Below, in pieces: positions 2,762 to 63,791 of a stretch of DNA of 64,000 nucleotides. This DNA comes from Eledone cirrhosa (lineage: Eukaryota). The stretch covers positions 12,090,001 through 12,154,000 of the forward strand of contig OZ024761.1 of NCBI GenBank assembly GCA_964016885.1, given 5' to 3'. The position numbers were made by a program, and so were the translations under genes. The notes beneath the pieces were generated by a model. The model saw nothing but the letters and a program-made list of their open reading frames with translations, was not told the origin of the DNA and did no database searches. The number at the start of each line of letters is the position of its first letter. Positions within the stretch are counted from its first letter, which is position 1.

Positions 2762-3244
2762 TATATATATATATATACACACACATATATACATATATAT
2801 ATATATATATTCACACACATATATACATATATATATATATTCACACACATATATACATATATATATATATACACACACATATATACACACATAGATACAC
2901 ACATATATATATATATACATATATATATATACACACACATATATATATATGTGTTAGGTGAAGTAGATGCGTTGTAAGCCTCAGTTCATTTTTCTGTCCT
3001 CTTCTGAATCTGTTCACTTGAGATAATACTGAAAACTTTCCTCCCTTCATACAAAGACTTTACTATTGACGGGGTGGGGGGTGGGGTATCTTGTCTGTAG
3101 ACTGTTTATGGCCCTTCACTGTACTGCCTCTTGCACACCTCCCTTCATCATACACTCATTTATGTGTGTGTGTGTGTGAGTATATATATATATGTATGTA
3201 TATATGTATGTATATATGTATATATATATATGTATATATATATA

Positions 3245-5710
3245 TCATCATCATCATCATCACCGTTTTACGTCCGTTCTTCCACGCTAGCATGGGTTAG
3301 ACGGGTTGTCCTGTTGTGGGCAGTGTCTGGTCGGCTGACCATGCCTTGCTCATACAGGAACTGATCTGGCTTGATTTCTACAGCTGGATGCCCTTCCTAA
3401 CACCAACCTCATTTACAGTGAGTGCTGGGTGCTTTTTCGTGGCGCCTACACGTCCACTTTACAGTGTGGGCTGGGTGCTTTTTTGCCGTGGCACCTCCAC
3501 GACCACCTTGCGGTGGGGGGGGGGGGCATATTGTTTATATGCTTCAGCATGTACCCATGGGAGGTCGGGTACCCTGTATTACTGCGTGACGCCAGAAGTC
3601 ACGGTCGTGTGTCATTGACTTTGAGAGGTGTAGTTGGGTAAGGTCGGCTTTTATCACCTCATCCCAAGTCATCTTGGGTCTCCCCACTCCGCGGTTTCCA
3701 TCAACTTCTAGTGCTCTGCACCTTTTTATGCAGCTGTCATCCTTCATACGCATCACATGTCCATACCAGCGTAACCGCCTCTCCTGCACGCAGCATTTGA
3801 TTCCTCTTATGCTCAGTCTCTCTCTCAATTCATTTATGCTTTGTCGTTCACGTATATTACTGTTACACATCCATCGGAGCATGCAGGCTTCGTTTCTCTC
3901 TAATCTACGTAAGTCTTCCACCTTCAGCGCCCAGGTCTCACTACCATGCAACATCGCTGTTCGGATACACGCATCATACAGTCTGCCTTTCATTCTGAGG
4001 GAGAAGCCTTTTGCAGCTAGCAGTGGTAGTAGTTCCCTAAACTTCTTCCATCCCGTTCTTACCCTAGTTATTGTACTTTCTGAGCACCCACCTCCGTTGC
4101 TAATTCGGTCACCTAGGTAGCAGAAGCTGTCTACTGTTTCTACAGGGCCCTCCCAGAGATTGGTGGTACTTGTTTCCTGTGGCTGTTTGCTTGCTGTTTC
4201 AGCACAGCTGCTGCATGTGAATCCTACATTCTTAATTAAGCTTCCTGAGATCCCGCTACATCTCTTGTGTACCCATTGTTTGCATTTGGGGCAAAGAATG
4301 GAGTTCCTACCTACACCTTTCCTACATACTGAGCAAGGCCATTTCCCTGAGGGGATCTGGGTTCTGTTTTCTCGTCTACTTATAAGGACCTTAGTCTTTG
4401 TCATGTTGACTTTGAGGCCCTTTCTCTCTAGTCCCTGCTTCCAGGTTTGGAATTTATTCTCTAGTTCTACCATAGATTCAGCTATGAGTGCGAGGTCATC
4501 AGCATACAGGAGTTCCCATGGGCATCCGGTCTTAAACTCCTCCGTTATTGCCTGCAGGACTATGATGAACAGGAGAGGGCTAAGAACAGAGCCCTGGTGG
4601 ACCCCAACCTGTACGCTAAATTCCTCGCTATACTCATTGCCAATCCTAACTTTGCTGACTGCTCCCCTATACATGGCTTGTACCGCTTTCACAAGCCATT
4701 CATCTACTCCTAGTTTTCTAAGAGCCCACCAGATTACTGCACGTGGAACTCTGTCAAAGGCTTTCTCAAGGTCGACAAATGCCAAGTAGAGTGGCTTACT
4801 TTTAGCTAGGTACTTTTCCTGTAATTGCCTCACAAGGAAGAGCGCATCAGTGGTGCCTTTCCCTGGAACAAACCCAAATTGCATCTCGTCTATATTCACC
4901 CGGTCCCTAATCAGCTGTGCTATAACTCTTTCTGTTACTTTCATGACCTGGTCCATCAACTTTATACCTCTATAGTTTCCTCTATCTAGTGCATCGCCTT
5001 TACCTTTGTAGCAGTTGACAATGATGCTACTGCACCAATCTTTTGGTATGGCCCCCTCTAGTATTACCTGGTTAACGATACGTGTGGTTATAGTGTGACC
5101 TACAGACCCAGATGCCTTCAGCATCTCGGCAGCTATACCCGATGGACCGGTTGCCTTCCCTATCTTCATATCTCTGATTGCCTTACTTACTACGCTGCCG
5201 CTGACTTGTACTGCTGGTCCCTCTATAGGGTCTACGTGGGGTAGGGTCTCTTCTTCCCATGCATTCTCCTCATTTAGTAATCTATCATAATGACTCTTCC
5301 ATGCATCTTTCTTCTCAGCACTTGTGAGGGCAAGCTCACCTTTATCATTCCGGATACACTTCTCTCCAATGACATCACAACTATCTCTGACACACTGCCT
5401 CGCAATCTTGAATACCTCCTGTTTCTGGTCCTCACGTTGTAAAACATGCTTGAATTTTCTATCCTCTGCTTCCCTCCTAGCTAAGTATACTTGTCGCCTA
5501 GCTTCCCTCTTGGTCTCTATGTAATGTACCCTGCTCCCCCCGTTCTTCCATTCTTTCCATGCCTGTCTCTTGGCCTTGACTGCTTCATCTACCTTATTGT
5601 TCCACCACCAAGTCACTCTCCTCCTGCTTGAGGTCTTACTCCAGCCACAAACCTCATCCGTCGCCTCTAGTAAGTTATTTTTTAGGAACTCCCAGTTCTC
5701 TTCTACGTTA
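3245..5710 (-). mobile_element. 5'-truncated RTE-clade LINE; open RT ORF 3544-5616
   Basis: NYRGIKL, QFGF, FVDLEKAFDRV, GVHQGSVLSPLLF, YADD, Cys-rich CSVC/CPKC insert, RRLRWYGHV; (CAT)n tail. Confidence 0.95.
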
Positions 5711-5864
5711 AATGTCTCTATCTGTTCTTCTTATATATATATATATGTATGTATATATGTATGTATATATATATGTATATATATATGTATATATATATAT
5801 ATGTATATACACATGAATATATGTATATATATATGTACATATATATATACATATATATATACGA

Positions 5865-9129: not shown

Positions 9130-9355
9130 GATAAGTTCGGTTTCTAAATGAATAAAGCACCACCCACCAACAGCCTACATGAACCATTTGAGGAAGACCT
9201 CTTCAAAATGATCAGAGACATAAAATTTCGTAGAGCCAACCCACCATTCCAGGCCTATCTAATAGACGGAATGCGGAAAATGAAAAGTTCCCCCAATCTC
9301 CATGTCCTCTCCGATAAAACCAAAGGCATATATGAGGTGGACTTACCGACCTATA
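9130..9355 (+). mobile_element. Penelope-like element ORF fragment (region N-terminal to RT)
   Basis: PP...FEEDL..MI..IKFR....FQ..L......KSS....V.SDKT..IYE resembles the DKG/DKT motif region of PLE proteins. Confidence 0.65.
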
Positions 9356-9384
9356 TATGGAAAAAGTTTGCCATAAACTTTTTC

Positions 9385-9822
9385 CACATGGCTTAGTGGT
9401 TAGAGCATTGGTCTTGCAATCGAAAGGTTGTCAGTTCAATTCTCAGACCGGGTGATGTGTTGTTTCCTTGAGCAAGACACTTTATTTCACATTGCTCCAG
9501 TTTACTCAGCTGTAGAAATGAGATAATAGGGACTGGGGTCCCTATCATTCCACTGCAAAGTGGTCGTGGAGGCACCACGGCAAAAAAGCACCCAGCCCAC
9601 ACTGTAAAGTGGATGTGTAGGCGCCACAGAAAAAAACCCCAGCACTCACTGTAAATGAGGTTGGTGTTAGAAAGGGCATCCAGCTGTAGAAATGTGGCCA
9701 GAATCAGTTCCTGTATGAGCAAGACAAGGTCAGTGGACCTGGTATTGCCCACAACAGGACAACCCGTGTAACCCATGCTAGCATGGAAGAATGGCCATAA
9801 AACGACGATGACGATGATGATG
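9385..9822 (+). mobile_element. Composite SINE (family 2): tRNA head, central domain and RTE-derived 3' tail
   Basis: A-box tggcttagtgg, B-box agttcaattc, ccttgagcaagacact core, tail gttagaaagggcatccagc...(GAT)n; near-identical copy at 29760-30087. Confidence 0.8.
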
Positions 9823-14922: not shown

Positions 14923-15346
14923 AGCAGCTTCTTGTATGCTTTTGAGAACAGTACTGAACCTGTTGCTCAGTTGATGTATACAAGTTCCAACCATGGATTG
15001 CCAGGATCTGTTTGTACATCCGAGGGTGGATATATTGTCTATACTACGACAGCAGCACCAGGAATGGTGGGCTCTGTTACAGGCTCGTCAGGGCTGTTGC
15101 CACAGCCTCACCTACAGGAAGTAAACACGGACCACATTGACAATCACTTGGTGCATTCAAGGGCAACTTTATTAAATGGACGTATGGCTCAAAACGAATT
15201 TGATAATCCAATGGACTTGTCGAATGGTAAAGTGGTCCAGGTTATCGATATGAAAAAGGAAGACACTCGGCAGTATGACCACAATCAACCAGCACCAAAT
15301 TATCGCCATAATGGTGTTACAGTTGGTATACCAGAATCTCAACATG
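14923..15346 (+). CDS. Su(H): Coding exon, N-terminal region of Su(H)/RBPJ (CSL); contains CtBP-binding motif PMDLS (15208-15222)
   Basis: Polypyrimidine acceptor ctttcatctttttcAG, open frame SSFLYAFENS...NPMDLSNGK...PESQH, donor G|GTAAGT (phase 1) matching the phase-1 acceptor at 40987. Gene identity is inferred from PxDLS plus GSLTPPDK motifs known in protostome Su(H). Confidence 0.8.
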
Positions 15347-32333: not shown

Positions 32334-33995
32334 CATCATCATCATCACCGTTTTACGCCATTTTTCCACACTAGCATGGGTTAGACGGGTTGTCCTGTTG
32401 TGGGCAGTGCCAGGTAGGCTGACCTTGTCTTGCTCATACGGAAACTGATTTTGGCTTGATTTCTACAGCTGTATGCCCTTCCTAAGACCAACCTCATTTA
32501 CAGTGAGTGCTGGGTGCTTTTTTTCCATGGTGCCTACACGTCCACTCTACAGTGTGGGCTGGGTGCTTTTTTGTCATGACACTCCAAGGACCACTTTGCA
32601 GTGGGAGGGGGTGGGAGCATATTGTCTATATGCTTCAGCTTCGGCTTGTACCCGTGGGAGGTCGGGTCTTCTGTATTATTGCGTAACGCCAGAGGTCTCA
32701 GTCCTGTGTCATTGCCTTTGAGAGGTGTAATTGGGTAAGGTCGGCTTTTATCACCTCATCCCAGGTCTTCTTGGGTCTCCCCACTCCAAGGCTTCCATCG
32801 ACTTTTAGTACTCTGCACCTTTTTATGCAGCTGTCATCCTTCATACGCATCACATGTCCATACCAACGCAACTGCCTCTCCTGCACACACCATTTGATTC
32901 CTCTTATGCTCAGTCTCTCTCTCAATTCATTTATGCTTTGCCGTTCACGTATATTACTATTACACATCCATCGGAGCATGCAGGCTTTATTTATTTCTAA
33001 TCTATGCAAGTCTTCCACAGACAGCGCCCAGGTCTCACTACCATGTAACATTGCTGTTCGGATACACGCATCATACAGTCTGCCTTTCATTTTGAGGAAA
33101 AAGCCTTTTGCAGCTAGCAGTGGCAGTAGCTCCCTGAACTTCTTCCATCCTGTTCTTACCCTAGTTATTGTACTTTCCGAACACCCACCTCCGCTGCTAA
33201 TTCGGTCACCCAGGTAGCAGAAGCTGTCTACTGTTTCTACAGAGCCCTCCCAGAGTTTGGTGGTACTTGCTTCCTGTGGCTGTTTGCTGCTTACTGTCCC
33301 GGTGCAGCTTACATTCTTAGCTAAGCTTCCTTAGATCCCATTACACCTCTTGTGTACCCATTGTTTGCATTTGGGGCAGAGGATGGAATTCCTACCTACA
33401 CCTTTCCTACATACTGAGCAAAGCCATTTCCCTGAGGGGATATTGGTTCTGTTTTCTCATCTACTTATGAGGACCTTAGTCTTTGTCAGGTTGACTTTGA
33501 AACCCTGTCTTTCTAGTCCATGCTTCCATGTTGGGAATTTCTTCTCTAGTTCCGCCATAGATTCAGCTATAAGTGTAAGATAATCCGCATACAGAAGTTA
33601 CATGGGCATCTGGTCTTAAACTCCTGTTATAGCCTGCAATATGATAATAAACAGGAGAGGGCTAAGAACAGAGCCCTGGTGGACACTGACCTGTATGCTA
33701 AATTCCTCGCTGTAGTCATTGTTAACCCTAACTTTCCTGACTGCTCCCCACAGGGGACTCTGTCGAAGGCTTTTTCCAGATCGACAAATTCCAAGTAGAG
33801 TGGCTTACTTTTAGCTAGGTACTTTTCCTGCAACTGCCTCATAAGGAAGAGAGCATCAGTGGTGCTTTTTCCTGGCACAAACCCAAACTGCATCTTATCT
33901 AGTTTTACCCGGTCCCTAATCAGCTGTGCTATAACTCTCTGTTACTTTCATAACCTGGTCCATAAGCTTTATACCTCTATAGTTTCCTCTATCTA
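32334..33995 (-). mobile_element. Decayed RTE LINE (same family as 3245-5710)
   Basis: Frameshifted RT: QFGFVPGK, DLEKAFDRV, RWYGHV; (CAT)n tail. Confidence 0.9.
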
Positions 33996-34294: not shown

Positions 34295-35515
34295 CAATTA
34301 GATGAGAAACAGTTTGGTTTTGTGCCTGGGAAAAGTACAACAGCTGCCTTCTTCTTAGTGAGATAACTACAACAGAGGTTCTTAGAGAAGAATAAGCCAC
34401 TATACTTAGCTTTTGTTGACCTAGAGAAGGCCTTCGATAGAGTACCCTGATCTGTCATCTGGTGGTCCCTAAGGAAACTAGGTGTAGAGGAATGGCTTGT
34501 GAGGACAGTGCAAGCTATGTACAGGGGTGCTGTCAGTAAAGTGAGAGTAGGAATGGAGTTTAGTGAGGAATTCCAGATACAAGTAGGTGTACATCAGGGT
34601 TTGGTCCCCAGCCTGCTCTTGTTCATTATAGTCTGCCAAGCCATAACAGAGGAGTTTAAGACTGGCTGTCCATGGGAACTTCTCTAGGCTGACGATCTGG
34701 TACTTATAGCAGAATCAGTTGAGGAGCTAGAGAATAAATTCTGGCTATGGAAACAGCAGTTGGAATCAAGAGGACTGAGAGTGAACCTAGCTAAGACTAA
34801 GGTGTTGATAAGTGGGAAAGGGGATAAAACACTGATTCCATCATGGAAATGGCCATGTTTGATATGTAGGAAAGGAATTGGTATAAATTCTATAAATTGT
34901 ACACAATGCAGATCCTGGGTACACCATAGATGTAGTGGGATAACAGGCAAACTAACAGGTAGGGAAAACTACATATGCAGTAGATGTACAGGGAAAGTTG
35001 ACAGTAGAAGTCGCAGTGATAGACACATTTTTCAAATGCAGGTGGGTTCTATAGAAGTAGTTGATAGCTTCCGGTACCTAGGTGATCAGATTAAGGGAGG
35101 AGGGTGCTCTGAGGCCATAGTATCTAGAATAAGGACGGGTTAGAAGAAGTTTAGGGAGCTGTATCCTCTGTTGACAAAGAAGGGTTTCTCCCTACGAACG
35201 GAAGGCCGGTTATATGATGCCTGCGTGAGATGCGCGCTGCTGCATGGTAGTGAGACATGCGCAGCAACTGCAGAGGATATGCGATGGCTGGAGAGAAATG
35301 AAGCAAGCATGCTCCGATGAATGTGCAATGTCAATGTGCGTGAACGACCAAACATAGATGAGTTGAGAGAGAAGTGTATAAGAGGGATAAACTGTAGTGT
35401 GCAGGGGAGAAGACTGCGATGGTATGGACATGTGATGCGCATGGAGGATGACCACTGGGTAAAGAAGTGACAAGAAATCCCAGTAGAAGGAAGACCACAA
35501 AAAACCTGGGCGGAC
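34295..35515 (+). mobile_element. Decayed RTE LINE, related subfamily, opposite orientation
   Basis: LAFVDLEKAFDRV, KTGCPWELL*ADD, RWYGHVMRM. Confidence 0.9.
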
Positions 35516-38595: not shown

Positions 38596-38880
38596 TCAAT
38601 GATATTAAATAAATGGAAACTATATTTATAAAACCATATTTATTTTATATCTTTTTATATATTTATAAAACAAACTTTGTATTTTATCTGATGAAAGCAC
38701 ACCAATGTTGTCTTGGTTGCCCTTGAAATATATATAATAAAATAAATATGGTTTTATAAATATAGTTTCCATTTATTTAATATCATTGAATATTTACTCC
38801 AGTAAACTGTTGAGTGCTCTAAATCAGTTATAAACATTTATATTTGTTGGACTTCCAACAAATTAAATACCCCTTCTACT
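38596..38880. mobile_element. Family A foldback element with + hammerhead (38680-38744)
   Basis: UAUUUUAU-CUGAUGA...GAAA-UAUAUAUA-AUAAAAUA. Confidence 0.8.
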
Positions 38881-40986: not shown

Positions 40987-41209
40987 ATGCATCAGAACAT
41001 TTAATGTTAGCTGGGTCTTTAACACCACCCGACAAAATAAGTGGCGACTCAATTCCTATGGCAACCATCCGTCCACTTGGCACCAGTACATTGACCAATA
41101 CTATCAAAACCCCACCAAGTCCAATGCCTACTCCATCTCCACCAATAAACAGGATTACAGGTGATATTGATCATTCTGAGTCAAGGATTACACACCCATT
41201 TTCACGCAG
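40987..41209 (+). CDS. Su(H): Coding exon of Su(H)/RBPJ with Groucho-binding motif GSLTPPDKI (41013-41039)
   Basis: Acceptor ttttatttattacAG; phase-1 join gives ...SQH-D-ASEHLMLAGSLTPPDKISGD...PPSPMPTPSPP...HPFSR; donor CAG|GTAAGA (phase 2). Confidence 0.85.
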
Positions 41210-41289
41210 GTAAGAATTGTTTTCTCTTTCAGTATAGAGTGAAGTCCATCCATCCATATTCAGTTTTTGTCTTTAGGGTGCTGTGGTTG

Positions 41290-42250
41290 TCCCTGACTCC
41301 AAGGTAGACAACACCAGGCAATGTCTCACAGCTGCTCTCCATGAATTTCTGTCCATAGTATCGACATTGGCCAAGTTCCATTTATACAAATCACTCTTCA
41401 CGCACTCCAACCACGTCTTCCTTGGTCAGCCACGATCTCTAGTGACAGGGACTGCCAAGTGAGGGATGGAGTTGATCTATGGCGTGGTTCGCTGTACATG
41501 TCCTTACCAACGGAGACATTGTGTGTGAAGGACAGCAGTGATCTCATCTACACCCAGCTTCTGGTGGAACACAGTTCTTCCTTGGTCAGCCACGATCTCT
41601 AGTGACAGGGACTGCCAAGTGAGTGATGGAGTTGATGTATGGCGTGGTTCGCTGTACATGTCCTTACCAACAGAAACATTGTGTGTGAAGGACAGCAGTG
41701 ATCTCATCTACACCCAGCTTCTGGTGGAACACAGTTCTTCCTTGGTCAGCCACGATCTCTAGTGACAGGGACTGCCAAGTGAGTGATGGAGTTGATGTAT
41801 GGCGTGGTTCGCTGTACATGTCCTTACCAACGGAGACATTGTGTGTGAAGGAGAGCAGTGATCTCATCTACACCCAGCTTCTGGTGGAACACAGTTCTTC
41901 CTTGGTCAGCCACGATCACTAGTGTCAGGGACTGCCAAGTGAGTGATGGAGTTGATGTATGGCGTGGTTCGCTGTACATGTCCTTACCAACAGAAACATT
42001 GTGTGTGAAGGACAGCAGTGATCTCATCTACACCCAGCTTCTGGTGGAACACAGTTCTTCCTTGGTCAGCCACGATCACTAGTGTCAGGGACTGCCAAGT
42101 GAGTGATGGAGTTGATGTATGGCGTGGTTCGCTGTACATGTCCTTACCAACAGAAACATTGTGTGTGAAGGACAGCAGTGATCTCATCTACACCCAGCTT
42201 CTAGTGGAGCACGGTCGAAGGGGTCTCATCTTTCAATTTGGCGCCACAGA
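41290..42250 (-). repeat. 160-bp tandem array (~5 units) derived from an RTE LINE C-terminal fragment
   Basis: Period 160 (repeated ORFs at 41538/41698/41858/42018); minus frame RW*GHVQRT...RG*PRKTWLECVKSD. Confidence 0.85.
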
Positions 42251-42797
42251 TCCACCTAATCATGGCACGATCATTTCACCTGAGCCGTTGCAATACTAGA
42301 CATAGTGTTATATAATGTTGCTTTGAAAATAGAATGAAGTGGTTTAAAGAAATGTTATTTCAATACTCGACATATCATCATTGATTAGCGTCTATCTTCC
42401 ACACTAGCATGGGTTAGACGGGTTTGTTCCAATTATAGGCAAGTTGGGTCGAATGAAACCAGCAAAACAATGAAAGAAAAAAAAAATGTGTATATATACA
42501 TGTATGTATATATTTGTATGTATTTATATGTATGTATGTGTATGTTTTTGTTTTAATTAAATATTGAAATTCGATGTGAAAGCAGTGTGTTACAACCATC
42601 TATGACAGGTTCTCAAAGTGGATGCCACCCTCTACCACCCAGGGGACGTTGAGAAGATACAAGGGTTCCCTGGGGCCTAAGGGGGTGGCAGAGATGATAT
42701 AATAATATATTAAATATCAAATGATACATATATATAAATATAGTAAAATAAAAAATATATAATATTTATTTATACATAGTATATATTATATTATTTA

Positions 42798-44935: not shown

Positions 44936-45137
44936 TCTATATCTCTTTCTCATTTCCTCTCTCTCACTTTCTATCTTTCTCTGGAAGAAATCGGCTGTAC
45001 TCAGACCTGGAGAGGGGGGGGGGGGGCTCCGCCAGGCTTTAAATGGCCAAGTCATGCTGTATGTCCAGATCTAGCTGTCGAAATGGCTGCGACTCAGCCG
45101 TCAGGGTCCTGAATCTTTTCATATATATATATATATA

Positions 45138-45610
45138 TGATTAAGTAAAAAGTGTACATCCACATATGTATACTGAAATACTAGTATGCATATAAATACA
45201 CACACGTATTTGTTTTTATCGTTTCCGTTGAACCGGTACGTACTCACGCTCTATGCAAATTAGTCTGCCCACTACTAATTTTCATAGAAAAAGCATATAA
45301 CGATATGTGCTTTTACGATTCTCTAGAGGGGCCGGAGGATGGGTATATATTGCTGATGAGATGTAATAACATCGAAACTAGTCCAATATTCCTGTCTGGC
45401 TCTCTGGAGAATAGAGGAAAGGTGTTTCCTTGAAAACCAGTATGACTCTAAAAACCGGTTTGTCTGTTTGGTTACATACAGACTAGCTGGACACTCACAG
45501 TAAAGTGTCCAGTGAAAAACTCGGTACATGTACATATGTATACGTGTGTGTATTTATATGCATACTAGTATTTCAGTATACATATGTGGATGTACACTTT
45601 TAACTTAATT
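45138..45610. mobile_element. Family E element: ~70-bp inverted ends around a canonical hammerhead
   Basis: attaagtaaaaagtgtacatccacatatgtatactgaaatactagtatgc and its reverse complement. Confidence 0.8.
45347..45389 (+). ncRNA. Canonical minimal type I hammerhead ribozyme
   Basis: AUAUUG-CUGAUGA-GAUGU(AAUA)ACAUC-GAAACUAGUC^CAAUAU; perfect stems I and II, palindromic ACUAGU. Confidence 0.9.
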
Positions 45611-45693
45611 GTTTAAGCGTCAGTCATACAAAAGTGAGTTACAAACGAAACGAAATTTAATTTCGTTTCGTTATTTGTTTTTATATATATATG

Positions 45694-45724
<31 letters not shown>

Positions 45725-47285: not shown

Positions 47286-47541
47286 GGATAACAAGGACGA
47301 TTGGTTACTCCTTCATTACATTTATTGATAGGTGACGCGCGTTTCGCCACTGATCAGCTCAAGGTTCGATCTGTATAGATCCTACCTGACTCAATAATCG
47401 GCAGCTCAACGGACCCTTTAAAAATGCTATAAGAAAAAGAAATACATGCTATGTGGTAAAGTCAGAGTTTCAAGAGTGCTCTCCCGGGTGAACCTGCAGT
47501 AACTCCTAGTTACACCCCCTGGATATATATATATGTATATA

Positions 47542-47750
<209 letters not shown>

Positions 47751-47759
47751 ACACATATA

Positions 47760-47904
<145 letters not shown>

Positions 47905-47913
47905 ACACATATA

Positions 47914-47963
<50 letters not shown>

Positions 47964-47969
47964 TATATA

Positions 47970-50900
47970 ACTGGAAAAAAACATTCGAGCTATCACCCAG
48001 CACCACCCTCCACTATCACCCCACTGCACAAACTCCCATTGCTGCCATTAACAAACAAACAAATTAACAACACACCAAAACAATTAAAACCATCCACTCT
48101 CGCCTCTACATTTTTGCTTAACGCCCAAGGCATCAGCCCTTCCACCAATACTCAAAAATGGAAGATCAAATTCCTGGAGGACTGGATTGATGTCCATCCA
48201 AACCACATCCCTTTCTTCGTCCTCACTGAAACCCATCTCAGTAACCTCCACTTGGAAGCCGAGGTGAAAGTGAAAAATTTCAAAGCCATCCGTGCTGATC
48301 GCGCTGGCAGAAGAAAGGGCGGAACTGCCATTTATGTCCATAATTCTTTCTCAACAGAGGCTATGAACATATTCACTAATGGATACTGTGAGGCAGTCAC
48401 TGTATTCAGTCAAACCAACAACCTATTAGTAGTTGGGCTCTATAGGCCACCCCAAACGCCTGTACCATGCTTCAAGGAATGCCTCAACAGCATAAAGTGT
48501 TTCATCCAAGAGTGTCACCCTGACAACATCTTAATGATGGGGGACTTCAACCTCCCCGGAGTTGACTGGTCCACAAACACCCTGCCACCAGGTTCTTCTG
48601 CCTCAACCTCTGACAGGGAAGCTGTGGAATCGCTTCTTGACTTCATGGATGATTTCTTCCTATCCCAACTAGTGCTCGAACCAACGAGGTGCCACAAAAA
48701 CGTCCTAGACTTAATTTTCAGCAATCACACTGACAATATCCACAATATTGCAGTGGAGAAAACTCTACTCTCTGATCATGACATGGTTCTCTGTGATCTG
48801 AGATTCCACCGTCCAATATACAAACCCAATGTCATTTCTCCTGTCCATCCGTTTGACGCTATGGATTTCCACAATGCAAACTGGGAAGCGATCAGTCATG
48901 ATCTTGCACATGTCGACTGGTCCTTCACGCACACTCATACACCCACTAACATCAAAAAGTCCTGGCAGACATTTGTGGACACTGTTACAAACATATGTGC
49001 TAAACACACCCCATTAAGAACTATAAACAAATCTAAGAGCAGAATCCCTAGAAATAGAAAAACACTCATCAGAAAAATTAAGAGAACGAACAAAAAAATC
49101 AACAAGCTGAAATACTGTCAGCAGCAACACATCAACTTGACTGCCATTTCATCACTAGAGATTAAAAAACATAACCTCCAAAACAACATAATGTCCCTCA
49201 TCAACAATCAGAGAAGAGCTGAAGAGGCCTGGGCCATTGAGAAGATCAAACTCAATCCCAAAGTGTTCTTTTCATTTGCAAAAAAACACAAAATCACTGG
49301 CTCTACTGTTGGCCCTCTAATTGATGAAAATGGCACTCTTCAAGACAATGCTAAAACCATGGGTGAGATACTGCAGAAACAATACTGCTCTGTTTTCAGC
49401 AATCCTGATATGGCCGATCTGGGCTGTATCGGCGATGTTACTCCCCATTACACCTTATCGGACATAACGTTTGGCGCCCCTGATGTCTTGGCGGCAATAA
49501 AGGAAATCAAGCATAATTCAGCAGTAGGTCCCGATAGGTTCCCTGCTTGTGTCTTGAAGGCGTGTCAACACCAACTTGCTTCTCCTCTTGCCAATCTGTG
49601 GCGGAACTCACTGGATGCTGGATATGTGCCAGAAAACCTTCTATCCCAGTCTGTTGTCCCAGTTTTCAAAAAGGGAAACAAATCCCTTGCCGTGAATTAC
49701 CGTCCAATCTCACTCACCTCTCATATCATTAAGGTATTTGAGCGAGTGGTGAGATCGCGAATGACCCACTTCCTTGAGAGTAACAATATGCTGAACTCCA
49801 ACCAGCATGGATTCCGTAATGGAAGGGATTGCCTGACGCAACTACTGCATCACTTTGATGACATTTTGAGAGCCTTGGGAGAGGGTTCCAACACTGATGT
49901 TATCTACCTTGATTTCAGCAAGGCCTTTGACAGGGTTGATCATAACATTCTACTGAGAAAGCTGTCCAATATTGGTGTCACTGGAAAGCTGCTGCAGTGG
50001 ATCAAGAGCTTCCTGTCAAACAGAACCCAACATGTTGTAGTTGAGGGAGTCAAATCAAGCCCAGCCAAAGTCAGTAGTGGAGTCCCACAAGGCACTGTGT
50101 TGGGCCCACTTCTCTTCATCATCTATATTAATGACATCACTGACATCATCAAACACAGCAACATTAAAATTTTCGCTGATGATTCCAAGCTCCAAAAGGT
50201 CATCAATGGCGTGGATGACCGGATAAGCCTTCAGTCAGACCTACTGGCTGTTACCCAATGGGCAGAAAAGAACAACATGCTACTGAACGAAGACAAATTC
50301 GAACTGATCCACTTTGGAAAAGAGGATGCTCTGAAACTCCCGTACTCCCTTCCCTCCGGGGAAACTCTCGTGGCATCTAACAACATCAGAGACTTGGGAG
50401 TAACCGTGGACAGCAACATAAGCTGGACCACGCATATAAGCAGCAAAGTTGACATGGCCCGCAGAATGTGTTCCTGGATCCTCAGAACCTTCCAGTCGAG
50501 AGATTCCCGCACCATTATCCTTCTCTTCTCTACTTTCGCCCGACCACACCTTGAATACTGTTGTCCACTGTGGTCTCCCCACACGAAACAAAGTATCATG
50601 AAACTTGAAGCTCCTCAAAGGGCAATCACGAAAAAGATAGATGGCATGTCAGACCTTGACTACTGGGGTCGATTGGAAAACCTGAAACTTTACTCACTCC
50701 AACGTCGCCGTGAGCGTTATATTATCTGCATGATGTGGAAAATGTTCCATCATCACTGCCCAAATGATGTTGGCATCGCCTTCAAGATACACCCAAGGCT
50801 TGGGCCCCGTGCTATCCGTCCCATTCAAAAATCTAAATCGCAACTCATAACAACAATACGGCACAATTATTTCACCTCAATCGGCCCTGCTCTCTTCAAC

Positions 50901-51146
50901 ATCACACCAGGACACGTCAAAACAGAAACTGACCACACAAAATTCAAGAAGTCTTTGGACAAATTCCTCCAAGTAATCCCGGACAAACCACCCACACCCG
51001 GATATGTCTCCGCAAACAGTAATTCTCTTCTCGAATGGGCCATGGTGCCCAAATCCTGAATTGAAAGACTTCGCCAGGTGGTGCTATTAAGTTAGACATG
51101 GCCTGGGCCAATACTGGCCAAAACATTTCAAAGTTATTCAAAGTTA
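47970..51146 (+). mobile_element. CR1/Jockey-group LINE with uninterrupted APE+RT ORF (~47970-51059), 5'-truncated, in (TA)n
   Basis: LNAQG, LTETH, YRPP, GDFN, LDL, SDH; [40 protein letters not shown]; 3' (ttcaaagtta)2. Confidence 0.95.
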
Positions 51147-53357: not shown

Positions 53358-53780
53358 TATTAATAAGAGGAATTCCAACTTTGTCTGATTTACTCGTTTT
53401 ATTTACGATCCTTTAAAATTTATAATGGTATTATAATGAAATAGTATGATAGAATATTAAATGTTAAGTGTTAATTGAACAAGTACTTTCATGCTTTCGC
53501 AATCTTCAGGTTCATAATGTGTGGTGACAGTCAAGTTTGCAATTTTCAGTTGAAAATTGCAAACTTGACTGTCACCACACATTATGAACCTGAAGATTGC
53601 GAAAGCATGAAAGTACTTGTTCAATTAACACTTAACATTTAATATTCTATCATACTATTTCATTATAATACCATTATAAATTTTAAAGGATCGTAAATAA
53701 AACGAGTAAATCAGACAAAGTTGGAATTCCTCTTATTAATATAATCTTCTATACACAATCATACACACCCGTGTATATTT
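53358..53780. mobile_element. Family G ~385-bp palindrome with two opposed hammerheads, plus tail
   Basis: Centre ttttcagttgaaaa near 53550; the tail also occurs at 21348-21410. Confidence 0.85.
53585..53623 (+). ncRNA. Minimal hammerhead ribozyme (family G)
   Basis: UGAAC-CUGAAGA-UUGC(GAAA)GCAU-GAA[AGUACU]U^GUUCA. Confidence 0.75.
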
Positions 53781-57360: not shown

Positions 57361-58026
57361 TATATATATATACACAAATACATATACATACATATATATA
57401 TATATATACACGCACATATTCACGCATATATATATACACACACACATATATATATATACACATATACACGTATAAATATATACATACATATATATATATA
57501 CACATACACACATACATATATATATATACACATATACACGTATAAATATATACATACATATATATATATACACATACACAAACACATATATATACATACA
57601 CATATACACGTATAAATATATATATACATACACATATACACATATATATACATATATATCAAGGGAGTAAGAAAGGTTAAAAAAAAAAACAAGCATAACA
57701 TTGAGAAAAAGAAAATCTACATACATACATATATGTATATATAATACATACACATATACACGTATAAATATATATATATACATACATATATGTATATATA
57801 ATACATACACATATACACGTATAAATATATATATATACATACATATATGTATATATAATACATACACATATACACGTATAAATATATATATATATACATA
57901 CATATATGTATATATAATACATACACATATACACGTATAAATATATATATATACATACATATATGTATATATAATACATACACATATACACACCTGTATT
58001 TATTGTATACTCCATCGGAAGGAAAG

Positions 58027-58412
58027 ATGACTTGTACTTACCCCTCAGATTTCTCGGGAAGGATTGGCTCTTCCTACCCGGAGTCGAACCTAACCACACT
58101 ACACCCACATCACCCTCAGCCCCACCACGCGCAAAGCCCTATCCCCACTGGTACTGTTTTATCCCAAGTACCACCGCCGCCACCACCACCACCACCACCG
58201 CTGCCACCAGCACAACTGCCACCACCACCACCACCAATGCAAGCCTGTGGGCCGCCTGCAATGTCAACACCACCTAGCTATACCACCATGGGGCCTTACC
58301 AATCCTACCTTGGAGATCTATACTGTTCACCTGACCTGGGGTACTATGACTCCTACTACCATAAAGATGCTGAGCTCAGCAGTTGTCGATATGGATTTTC
58401 TAATTTTCCAAG
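58027..58412 (+). CDS. Probable alternative exon of the same gene (Pro/Tyr-rich); alternative first exon (ATG 58027) or cassette exon (acceptor 58047-58048)
   Basis: Unique open frame MTCTYPSDFSGRIG...polyP...RYGFSNFP ending at donor CCAAG|GTATTT in phase 2, the same phase as exon 40987-41209. Confidence 0.55.
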
Positions 58413-58475
58413 GTATTTTTTTAATAGAAATTCTTTACTTTTGTTGGGTTTTTTTAAAATCAATTTCCACACAAG

Positions 58476-58772
58476 TTAACCCCTTCCATATGTTTCTTAA
58501 CCCCTTCCATATGTTTCTTAACCCTTTCGTTATGTTTCTTAACCCCTTCCATGTTTCTTAACCCTTTCCATATGTTTCTTAACCCCTTCCATATGTTTCT
58601 TAACCCTTTCCATGTTTCTTAACCCCTTCCATATGTTTCTTAACCCCTTCCATATGTTTCATAACCCTTTCCATGTTTCTTAACCCCTTCCATATGTTTC
58701 TTAACCCCTTCCATATGTTTCATAACCCTTTCCATGTTTCTTAACCCCTTCCATATGTTTCTTAACCCTTTC
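58476..58772. repeat. 19-21-bp minisatellite TTAACCCCTTCCATATGTTTC
   Basis: About 14 units. Confidence 0.9.
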
Positions 58773-61982: not shown

Positions 61983-62870
61983 GGTGCGGACGATATTTGT
62001 TCGCAAGATTACTGTCTAGGAAAAGATACCACAGTAGTTTTACTTTTTAAGATATATTTATCAAACTTGGGTCAGTTTGTCTTCATGACTTGTTCTTTCG
62101 ATCTCACTCAATAAACCCGCCATTGGCTTTGATGACAGCCTCAAGGCGGCCTTGGAACCGGCTACAGGCCTTCGTCACTGTCCCCCGACTTAGGCCCCTA
62201 AAGGCACTTGTGGTCCTGGCCTTCAGATCGTCTTTCGTATTGCAGCTAGATCTGTTGGTGTCTCGTTCCACTGCGCCCCACACAAAGAAGTTGAGGGGGT
62301 TGCAGTCAGGCGAGCTGAGAGGCCAGATGTCAGGTGAAGTGTGGTCGACGAAGTTTTCTGACAGCCAGGCTTGGGTCTTTCGGCTGGTATGGCAGGGCGC
62401 TGAGTCTTGCTGCCACACGTACGGCCTACCTGCAGCTACCTGGTCGATCCAGGGCTTTACTACCTCGCTCAGAATGCGGATGTAGCCATCAGTGTTCAGC
62501 TTGAGGCCCTCAGGGAAGAAGTGAGGTGGCATGATGTCACCTTGACTGCTGACGACACCTAAGACCAATGTTGTCGCTGGAAACTGTGTCTGCATGACTC
62601 TGGGCACGTCTTTGGATGAGACAGCGAGCCACCTGTTATTCTGGGAGTTGATCTTCTGGTCTTTATTTGTCCTCCAGGTGCGGATTCCAAGAAGAACTCC
62701 GTGTCTCTTCCACAAATTTGGAGGTTCAAACTTATTCATAATCAATTATTCTGAAAATAAATAATGGAAATATAGTCACTGTTTTTATGAAGACAAGAGT
62801 GACAATGGAAGTAAAAAAAACTTTGCATAAAATTAGCAGTTGAAAATTGCGAACAAATATCGTCCACACC

Positions 62871-62920: not shown

Positions 62921-63618
62921 AAGGTATATATTGAGTTAGAAACTCAAAATAGTCTCTTACAATTAAATAGCTCAAGGAAAGAGATTTTTCCAGGCTGTGT
63001 AATATAATTGAATATAAAAGAGAGATAAACACAGATATATACATATATGTTCAAATTGTAAGGGACCAGATTCGCTAGGGTGAAAAAAATACTAACTATG
63101 AACAATAGGGTTTGCCAGATAAAATAATAAATCAAGAAAAGAAATACAGTTGCCCGAATTTGGGGCAACTACCAGACAGCCAGACAGCTTTTGGCAATAC
63201 TGTTTCGCAATTCTAGTGAAGGGAATTATCAATTCTTTTACTCATCAGTGGTTGTAAAATTAGTAAACCCTTCACTTCTAAGTATCTCAGAAGACTGAAT
63301 AGTGTACGCATATAAAATGACGCACCTGGCATCAGAACCTAGCTTGTCTCATAAACGTACGCTACTAAAAGTAGCAGCCAAGTTTACTCGTCATTTAAAT
63401 TAGTTCTACAAATTCAAGAAGCCAAATATATCAAAGGTATATATTGAGTTATGATTTGAACACATATATGTGTTTATCTGCGCTTATCTCTCTTTTATAT
63501 TCAATTATATATATATATATATATATTTCAAACCCACTCACTGTTTCAAAAATATTCTTACTTGACATTACAGTCGCTAAGTTTATAGCTTCTAATTTGA
63601 ATGGAAAAAGACGGGTGA

Positions 63619-63686
63619 TGTGTTGGTGTAAATGGTAGCACAGTGGTCCGGATAACCAAAGATGTGGGTTCGACTCCCATGTACGT
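63619..63686 (+). other. tRNA-like Pol III head (SINE or pseudo-tRNA)
   Basis: A-box tggtgtaaatgg, B-box ggttcgactcc; cloverleaf imperfect. Confidence 0.5.
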
Positions 63687-63791
63687 CAATACACATCTTT
63701 TTCCATTTCTCCGAGGGTTCTTAACCCCACTATCAGGCTAAATAATTTCTTTAATTTCTTTAGTCAAAATACGGCGATAGCTAACATTTAT

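Follow-up and report, generated by a model that had tools for sequence, protein, structure and literature searches.

The 465-nt repeat in an intron of the Su(H) gene of the octopus Eledone cirrhosa is best explained, with a probability of about 0.8, as a non-autonomous non-LTR retrozyme spread by Penelope-type elements (PLEs), whose hammerhead ribozyme is predicted to cut tandem transcripts as a dimer. The monomer is short and non-coding and carries one type I hammerhead. Tandem copies with complete hammerheads occur genome-wide in high copy number, the copy at the Su(H) locus is a monomer, and autonomous PLEs with reverse transcriptase (RT) and GIY-YIG ORFs are encoded by the same genome. The window, a 64,000-nt stretch of contig OZ024761.1 (positions 12,090,001 to 12,154,000), was analyzed together with loci sampled elsewhere in the genome (Table 1).

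Table 1. Features of the Su(H) locus, the inserted element and related elements. Positions are those of the window unless a sampled locus (L) is given.
Feature	Position	Strand	Basis or remark
Su(H)/RBPJ exon	14923..15346	+	86% identity to the Octopus bimaculoides protein named Su(H) by the source (P0002)
Su(H)/RBPJ exon upstream of the element's intron	40987..41209	+	93% identity
(TA)n target, left flank	45121..45139	.	sequence
Inverted 5'-truncated arm, ends at the short 3' end	45140..45209	-	copy of 45540-45609; self-BLAST, end classes
Right arm: complete 465-nt monomer at 45220-45684 and 13-nt wrap-around	45207..45684	+	
Tail of about 70 nt	45610..45684	+	between short (45607-45616) and long (45680-45684) 3' ends
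(TA)n target, right flank	45685..45710	.	sequence
Full type I hammerhead with extended stem I	45320..45412	+	fold; Rfam HH9 alignment
Distal-helix GG (pairs with 45391-45392) and loop 1 UAU bulge	45342..45346	+	variants, HH9 alignment
Span of the original prediction: stem I to palindrome, UAAUAA loop on stem II	45347..45389	+	
Stem I	45347-45352 / 45384-45389	+	6 bp
CTGATGA core	45353-45359	+	sequence, descriptor scan
Stem II	45360-45364 / 45369-45373	+	sequence, descriptor scan
GAAA core	45374-45377	+	sequence, descriptor scan
Palindrome ACTAGT (ACUAGU in RNA)	45377-45382	+	sequence, descriptor scan
GTC triplet	predicted cleavage after C45383	+	sequence, descriptor scan
LINE, RT and PHD finger right after RT core	3544-5730	-	
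LINE copies, PHD finger right after RT core	34451-35467 (+); 32687-33795		
LINE ORF, AP endonuclease and RT	47460-51059	+	same Su(H) intron, between long TA runs
Sibling retrozyme families	L102 6590-8001; L103 1890-2460; L112-L141		sampled loci
Long open PLE reading frames	L092 3809-6622 (-); L093 1488-4019 (+); L094 775-4062 (+)		sampled loci

Structure and classification of the hammerhead ribozyme

The occurrence of the hammerhead motif at 45347-45389 is not due to chance: a strict hammerhead descriptor matched the 64,000-nt window once on the forward strand and never on the reverse strand, and gave no match on either strand of 100 dinucleotide-shuffled windows. All elements of the hammerhead that the original prediction had placed there, made from the sequence alone, are present, including the intact CUGAUGA/GAAA core, the 6-bp stem I and the GUC site with cleavage after 45383. 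The motif thus stands, and its limits have to be widened, since stem I, interrupted by UAU on its 5' side and a bulged U on its 3' side, is prolonged by a helix that extends the predicted fold to about 45320/45412. Likewise, the second helix exists, and the proposed length of 5 bp gives way to 4 bp with a 6-nt loop, as preferred by the alignment to the Rfam HH9 model. A 43-nt construct as first delimited would lack the distal helix and therefore carries the risk of a false-negative cleavage result.

The end-to-end alignment to HH9 covers positions 45335-45405 (E 1.6e-6) and assigns the bulge to loop 1 and UAAUAA to loop 2; the GG of the distal helix with the UAU bulge of loop 1 is the predicted tertiary partner of loop 2. 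Its score of 33.2 bits is below the gathering score of 52 for Hammerhead_HH9, and a search of the whole window at gathering threshold yielded no hammerhead family and a weak tRNA match only.

Judged from its sequence, the ribozyme belongs to the canonical metazoan type I hammerheads, with one pair in stem III and a palindromic loop. In the canonical layout, helix I has 6 bp and helix II 4 bp, the loops interact, helix III consists of 1-2 bp and carries a palindromic loop, and the ribozyme is active as a dimer (PMC4209133). In the octopus element, helix III of 1-2 bp carries the palindromic loop ACUAGU, the CUGANGA and GAAA core with its NUH site is invariant across families, and loops 1 and 2 contain motifs for a predicted tertiary contact. 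The min-HHR, by contrast, is described as having a helix II of 7-8 bp, a helix I of 4-5 bp, an ill-defined loop 1 and an extra unpaired base ahead of helix II (PMC4209133), and the hammerhead at 45320-45412 does not have this anatomy. By these definitions the label "minimal" in the original prediction does not hold, while its reading of the palindromic ACUAGU stem III as typical of dimer-acting forms and its connection of the hammerhead to PLEs are borne out.

Of the 37 distinct extended motifs, 25 were aligned to evaluate conservation; the twelve set aside comprised nine family-A/B variants that were near-duplicates or carried single mutations, two motifs whose 5' flanks were foreign, and one unrelated motif. 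In this sample, representing essentially two to three families with non-independent cells, 96.3% of the cells were paired, against at most 49.6% in slid controls. Both-sided changes between families affect 6 of the 16 pairs and are compensatory in helix I (3/6 pairs) and helix II (3/5 pairs); pair-count measures of covariation in the alignment were no better than shuffles (163/500 and 198/500). While the stems change, the core, ACUAGU, UAANAA and the distal GG/CC pairs are fixed or nearly fixed, the last of these in 25/25 variants. UAANAA, forming loop II, and GGUAW/UCC, with the stem I bulge UAW, are conserved across stem-divergent variants. Among 73 family copies, which are not independent, the core shows two changes in 876 cells; alongside this near-invariant core, the figure for the ribozyme is 1.5%, against 4.1% and 6.6% for neighboring parts.

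The predicted folding energies, which concern secondary structure without tertiary terms and without a known-active control, fit a dimer step. At 37 °C the active fold of the monomer exceeds the minimum by 7.4 to 8.1 kcal/mol, and at 15 °C by 10-11 kcal/mol; the dimer-ready fold with the palindrome open lies 1.5 to 2.2 kcal/mol above the minimum, and the palindrome duplex is assigned -4.8 kcal/mol. An axolotl hammerhead with the same one-pair helix III was cleaved to 6% in an hour as a monomer and much better as a dimer (PMC7229834). Two published results count against the dimer scheme or its importance: of nine predicted Xenopus retrozyme dimers, only one showed cleavage in vitro (bioRxiv 10.64898/2026.07.22.740005), and PLE insertion in vitro did not require hammerhead cleavage (PMC11167929).

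The 465-nt monomer and its genomic copies

At the Su(H) locus the inverted arm, 98.6% identical to 45540-45609 over 70 nt in self-BLAST, meets the right arm at a 3-nt overlap (45207-45209). The wrap-around is evident from the identity of 45207-45219 with 45672-45684, and the tail contains a 29-nt palindrome (45644-45672). The "inverted repeat" of the original prediction is this inverted arm of the element. It leaves the ribozyme uncovered, in agreement with the claim that no antisense arm masks it; the spacer, however, is not unpaired as proposed and folds into a series of hairpins.

The exact motif has 3,077 matches in the genome and none with the reversed-pattern control. Among the 50 matches listed for the 306 bases around the motif, 41 are full-length with 96-100% identity. 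Other copies are arranged as direct tandems of period 463-470, with one hammerhead motif per period and up to 15 ribozymes in one region, and as head-to-head pairs. No stop-to-stop frame of 100 aa was found across the element, and no ORF lies in or beside it, whereas an autonomous PLE would have an RT and GIY-YIG ORF between terminal repeats. A sibling retrozyme family (13,664 pattern matches, control 0) has periods of about 466-540 nt and the same ACUAGU palindrome; its site is GUA or GUU, stem II starts with a U-U or C-A mismatch at its base, and a TA-rich insert is present.

In addition, the window contains a second hammerhead superfamily, at 38688, 39334, 51757 and 52880 on the forward strand and 52733, 7686 and 7021 on the reverse strand. 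It has an 8-bp stem I, a long stem II with an extra base, an 8-nt palindromic stem III and an AUA site, is closer to PLE min-HHRs and often forms close head-to-head pairs; its pattern has 65,577 genomic matches (control 0).

Insertion ends

The ends of the element were compared in 60 loci merged into 34 regions, 24 of them with both outer ends and 10 with one end only; the loci comprise the closest BLAST matches and the first matches on one contig and form a biased, non-random sample. Each of the 24 two-ended insertions has one short (45607-45616) and one long (45680-45684) end, 14 one way round and 10 the other. All 31 short ends, which were unselected for flank, run into TA repeats; for the long ends, the TA flank was part of the definition. 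The same rule was observed in all five two-armed cases of the sibling family (14 regions). Such a strict rule suggests joint use of the two RT start sites in a single event.

An inverted 5'-truncated arm, a tail at one end and an AT-rich or microsatellite target are thus combined in these insertions. Inverted 5'-truncated copies with a tail at one end are hallmarks of PLEs (PMC8557442), and microsatellite targeting belongs to the same set of features (PMC8557442, PMC3846280). In vitro, a PLE protein cleaves AT-rich DNA on both strands, and reverse transcription starts at two internal sites whose spacing corresponds to the tail (PMC11167929). The tail of about 70 nt exceeds the published length of 30-40 nt (PMC8557442), which counts against the PLE reading.

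The host gene and possible effects on its pre-mRNA

The Su(H)/RBPJ exons of the window lie on the forward strand and the remaining ones follow in order on the same strand beyond it, which confirms the sense-strand position of the hammerhead in the host intron. This intron, of about 25.8 kb, begins at 41210 and extends beyond the window by about 3 kb, the next acceptor found being at position 3015 of sampled locus L061. The hammerhead site is 4.2 kb from the intron donor and about 21.6 kb from the next identified exon. The search between the two exons did not reveal 13 residues of the O. bimaculoides isoform, so that the intron could be shorter if a small exon escaped recognition. Within the window, the introns of Su(H) contain another five hammerhead-like motifs on the sense strand, at 38688, 39334, 51757, 52880 and 53590. 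Genome-wide, 82,318 hammerhead-pattern matches (3,077 + 13,664 + 65,577), or one per approximately 36 kb, were obtained as the sum of three patterns, individual matches being counted at pattern level rather than each folded.

It is improbable that the solo copy undergoes monomeric self-cleavage in nascent Su(H) RNA and, like the CPEB3 ribozyme, lowers or tunes the mRNA with the help of tertiary contacts or proteins. An intronic ribozyme can matter, as in CPEB3 (PMC10919898), and the sense strand, the intact core and the loop motifs for tertiary contact are in keeping with such a role, but helix III has one pair and the monomer fold is predicted to be unfavorable. Coral and mussel monomers do cleave (PMC7229834), a protein-assisted PLE hammerhead is known (PMC11167929), and by a published rate argument about 21.6 kb to the next exon would leave minutes for cleavage (PMC10919898). 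Even then, introns cut by a hammerhead were still spliced, while a fast HDV ribozyme blocked splicing (work cited in PMC2995048). With an identity of up to 98.7% to dispersed copies, the insertion in Su(H) is recent and bears no sign of locus-specific conservation, and its hammerhead is one of about 82,000 pattern matches in the genome. The idea that the hammerhead could cleave the pre-mRNA is accordingly graded as weak for a single dimer-type copy that has no partner in cis, has an active monomer fold predicted 7-8 kcal/mol above the minimum and shares the introns of the gene with five similar motifs. Given the single copy, this unfavorable fold and the genomic pattern load, a role in cutting Su(H) pre-mRNA is unlikely, and this isolated copy is probably a passenger and not a switch of the gene. 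A small effect on Su(H) may occur, the long distance to the next exon leaving time for it.

More speculative still is activation in trans. The two retrozyme families, with about 16,700 genomic copies, share the ACUAGU palindrome despite diverged stems, so abundant retrozyme RNA could pair with solo intronic copies such as that in Su(H) and switch on cleavage. Although this is a long shot, it would mean a transposon-driven, genome-wide cutter of octopus pre-mRNAs.

Several other features of the host gene were observed. The arms at 45140-45209 and 45540-45609 would form a near-perfect 70-bp duplex in Su(H) pre-mRNA. A-to-I editing is extensive in coleoids, and this duplex is a plausible substrate for it. 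A 160-bp tandem repeat (41416-42355) directly follows the Su(H) exon. A proline-rich exon-like open frame on the forward strand of a Su(H) intron (57859-58490), unmatched by O. bimaculoides Su(H), is possibly an alternative terminal exon or part of another gene. A weak tRNA-like match is located at 63617-63688.

Candidate mobilizing enzymes and proposed mode of spread

One PLE of the same genome has a 938-aa ORF with RT and GIY-YIG domains and a Cx4CxxC linker, a feature associated with Neptune, between terminal repeats that carry short degenerate hammerheads. Its ends in (TA)n are at two sites spaced by about 63 nt, a two-end geometry like that of the retrozyme. Such intact-looking Neptune-type ORFs are candidates for the mobilizing enzymes. 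The genome contains 10,595 first-look GIY-YIG candidates; in the small sample of 50 loci examined (seven peptide clusters), no autonomous partner with the monomer sequence was found outside nested retrozyme copies, and the canonical hammerhead was absent from the terminal repeats of all autonomous PLEs sampled. A DNA search with the tail alone, in a program that skips common words, gave no match.

There is a slight chance that the unit is the solo terminal repeat of an unsampled autonomous PLE, multiplied by 5' truncation and DNA-level tandem expansion with no RNA circle. Its ends are of PLE type, the sample comprised 50 of more than 10,000 GIY-YIG candidates, and unequal crossover has been discussed for Xenopus (bioRxiv 10.64898/2026.07.22.740005); however, within either arm of single insertions the monomers follow one another directly with no ORF in between, the hammerheads of the sampled autonomous PLEs are short and degenerate, unlike the canonical one here, and BLAST revealed no ORF-linked copy among the 60 family loci. 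A MITE-like DNA transposon with 70-bp terminal inverted repeats, a TA target and an incidental hammerhead, as might be read from the inverted repeats flanking a 330-nt spacer between TA repeats at the Su(H) locus, is highly improbable and was rejected because of the variable arms, which range from tens of bases to many monomers with some insertions one-armed and with ends that differ by about 70 nt in 24/24 cases, either way round.

The retrozyme reading would imply the following course of events. Tandem arrays would be transcribed, and two copies paired through the ACUAGU palindrome would cut the tandem transcripts into monomers; dimeric self-cleavage followed by host ligation would yield a circle of about 465 nt, by analogy with PMC7229834. 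The RT/GIY-YIG protein of a PLE would then nick both (TA)n strands, and two cDNAs, each with one primer, would start at two internal sites about 70 nt apart. Each cDNA could run round the circle, generating head-to-head arms of variable length. The Su(H) copy would represent such an insertion with a single ribozyme, in which pre-mRNA cleavage is probably slow or absent, with little effect on splicing.

The window contains further mobile elements. Its LINEs were set aside as mobilizers, as no GIY-YIG domain or shared ends were seen. A head-to-head pair of short hammerheads, at 53509 on the reverse and 53590 on the forward strand, is identical to the one located downstream of GIY-YIG ORFs at loci L095, L096, L099 and L107 and, from this sequence identity, appears to represent truncated ends of an autonomous PLE family. 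A short forward-strand frame at 9148-9393 presumably resembles the region upstream of PLE RT domains, and a frame at 62107-62745, without a Pfam match, presumably resembles a Tc1/mariner transposase. The L092 family carries a hammerhead-like motif with the altered core UUGAAAA, resembling the U3-A8 variant (PMC4209133).

Comparison with known systems

Non-LTR retrozymes are an established class that includes a mollusc. Those of coral, mussel and axolotl are likewise non-coding and AT-rich with one canonical type I hammerhead, and share with the octopus element thousands of copies, forms from monomers to multimers and the co-existence of PLEs with minimal hammerheads (PMC7229834). The octopus monomer of 465 nt is longer than the reported RNAs of about 170-400 nt and repeats of 150-450 bp (PMC7229834), and lies within the 51-972 bp of a vertebrate survey (bioRxiv 10.64898/2026.07.22.740005). 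Neither PMC7229834 nor the preprint refers, in the main text as searched, to head-to-head arms, a one-sided tail or (TA)n targeting; the octopus element, for its part, is known from DNA. The newt and axolotl satellite hammerhead HHR_Amex1 also has a single-pair helix III, a palindromic tetraloop and loop 1-loop 2 motifs, and is dimer-dependent by design, as is predicted for the octopus hammerhead, from which it differs in sequence and host (PMC7229834). The U-U mismatch at the base of helix II in the sibling octopus family recalls HHR_Amex2 (PMC7229834). The min-HHRs of PLE terminal repeats are likewise of type I, palindromic around helix III and explained by a dimer model (PMC4209133).

Rfam HH9 has the same bulged stem I and loop II layout as the octopus hammerhead, but its consensus contains a stable helix III instead of one pair. 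HH9 is single-copy and deeply conserved, whereas the octopus hammerhead is a recent high-copy insertion with a score below the family threshold. The amniote intronic HH9/HH10 (Rfam RF02275) and the CPEB3 ribozyme are sense-strand intronic self-cleaving motifs, as is predicted here.

In the literature searched, which included few subscription papers and no supplements, no description was found of hammerheads in octopus or other cephalopods, of non-autonomous hammerhead elements with head-to-head arms, or of a load of about 82,000 hammerhead patterns in a cephalopod genome. The main text of the O. vulgaris repeat annotation mentions neither ribozyme nor hammerhead (PMC13282606).

Neptune-type PLEs and their pseudo-LTRs share with the octopus element the tandem and inverted arrangement, the tail at one end, microsatellite targeting and a hammerhead upstream of the 3' ends (PMC8557442, PMC3846280, PMC11167929). 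In contrast to them, the octopus element has no ORF, no sequence match to the sampled terminal repeats, a tail of about 70 rather than 30-40 nt and a canonical rather than a minimal hammerhead. The mobilizing enzyme of animal retrozymes has been argued from co-occurrence and sequence likeness (bioRxiv 10.64898/2026.07.22.740005, PMC7229834). A single intronic ribozyme is ordinary, and the useful part is the family, whose insertions themselves carry the PLE signature of inverted arm, one-sided tail and TA target. This makes the question of the mobilizer testable, with the Neptune-type ORFs of the same genome as candidate enzymes for a direct priming test.
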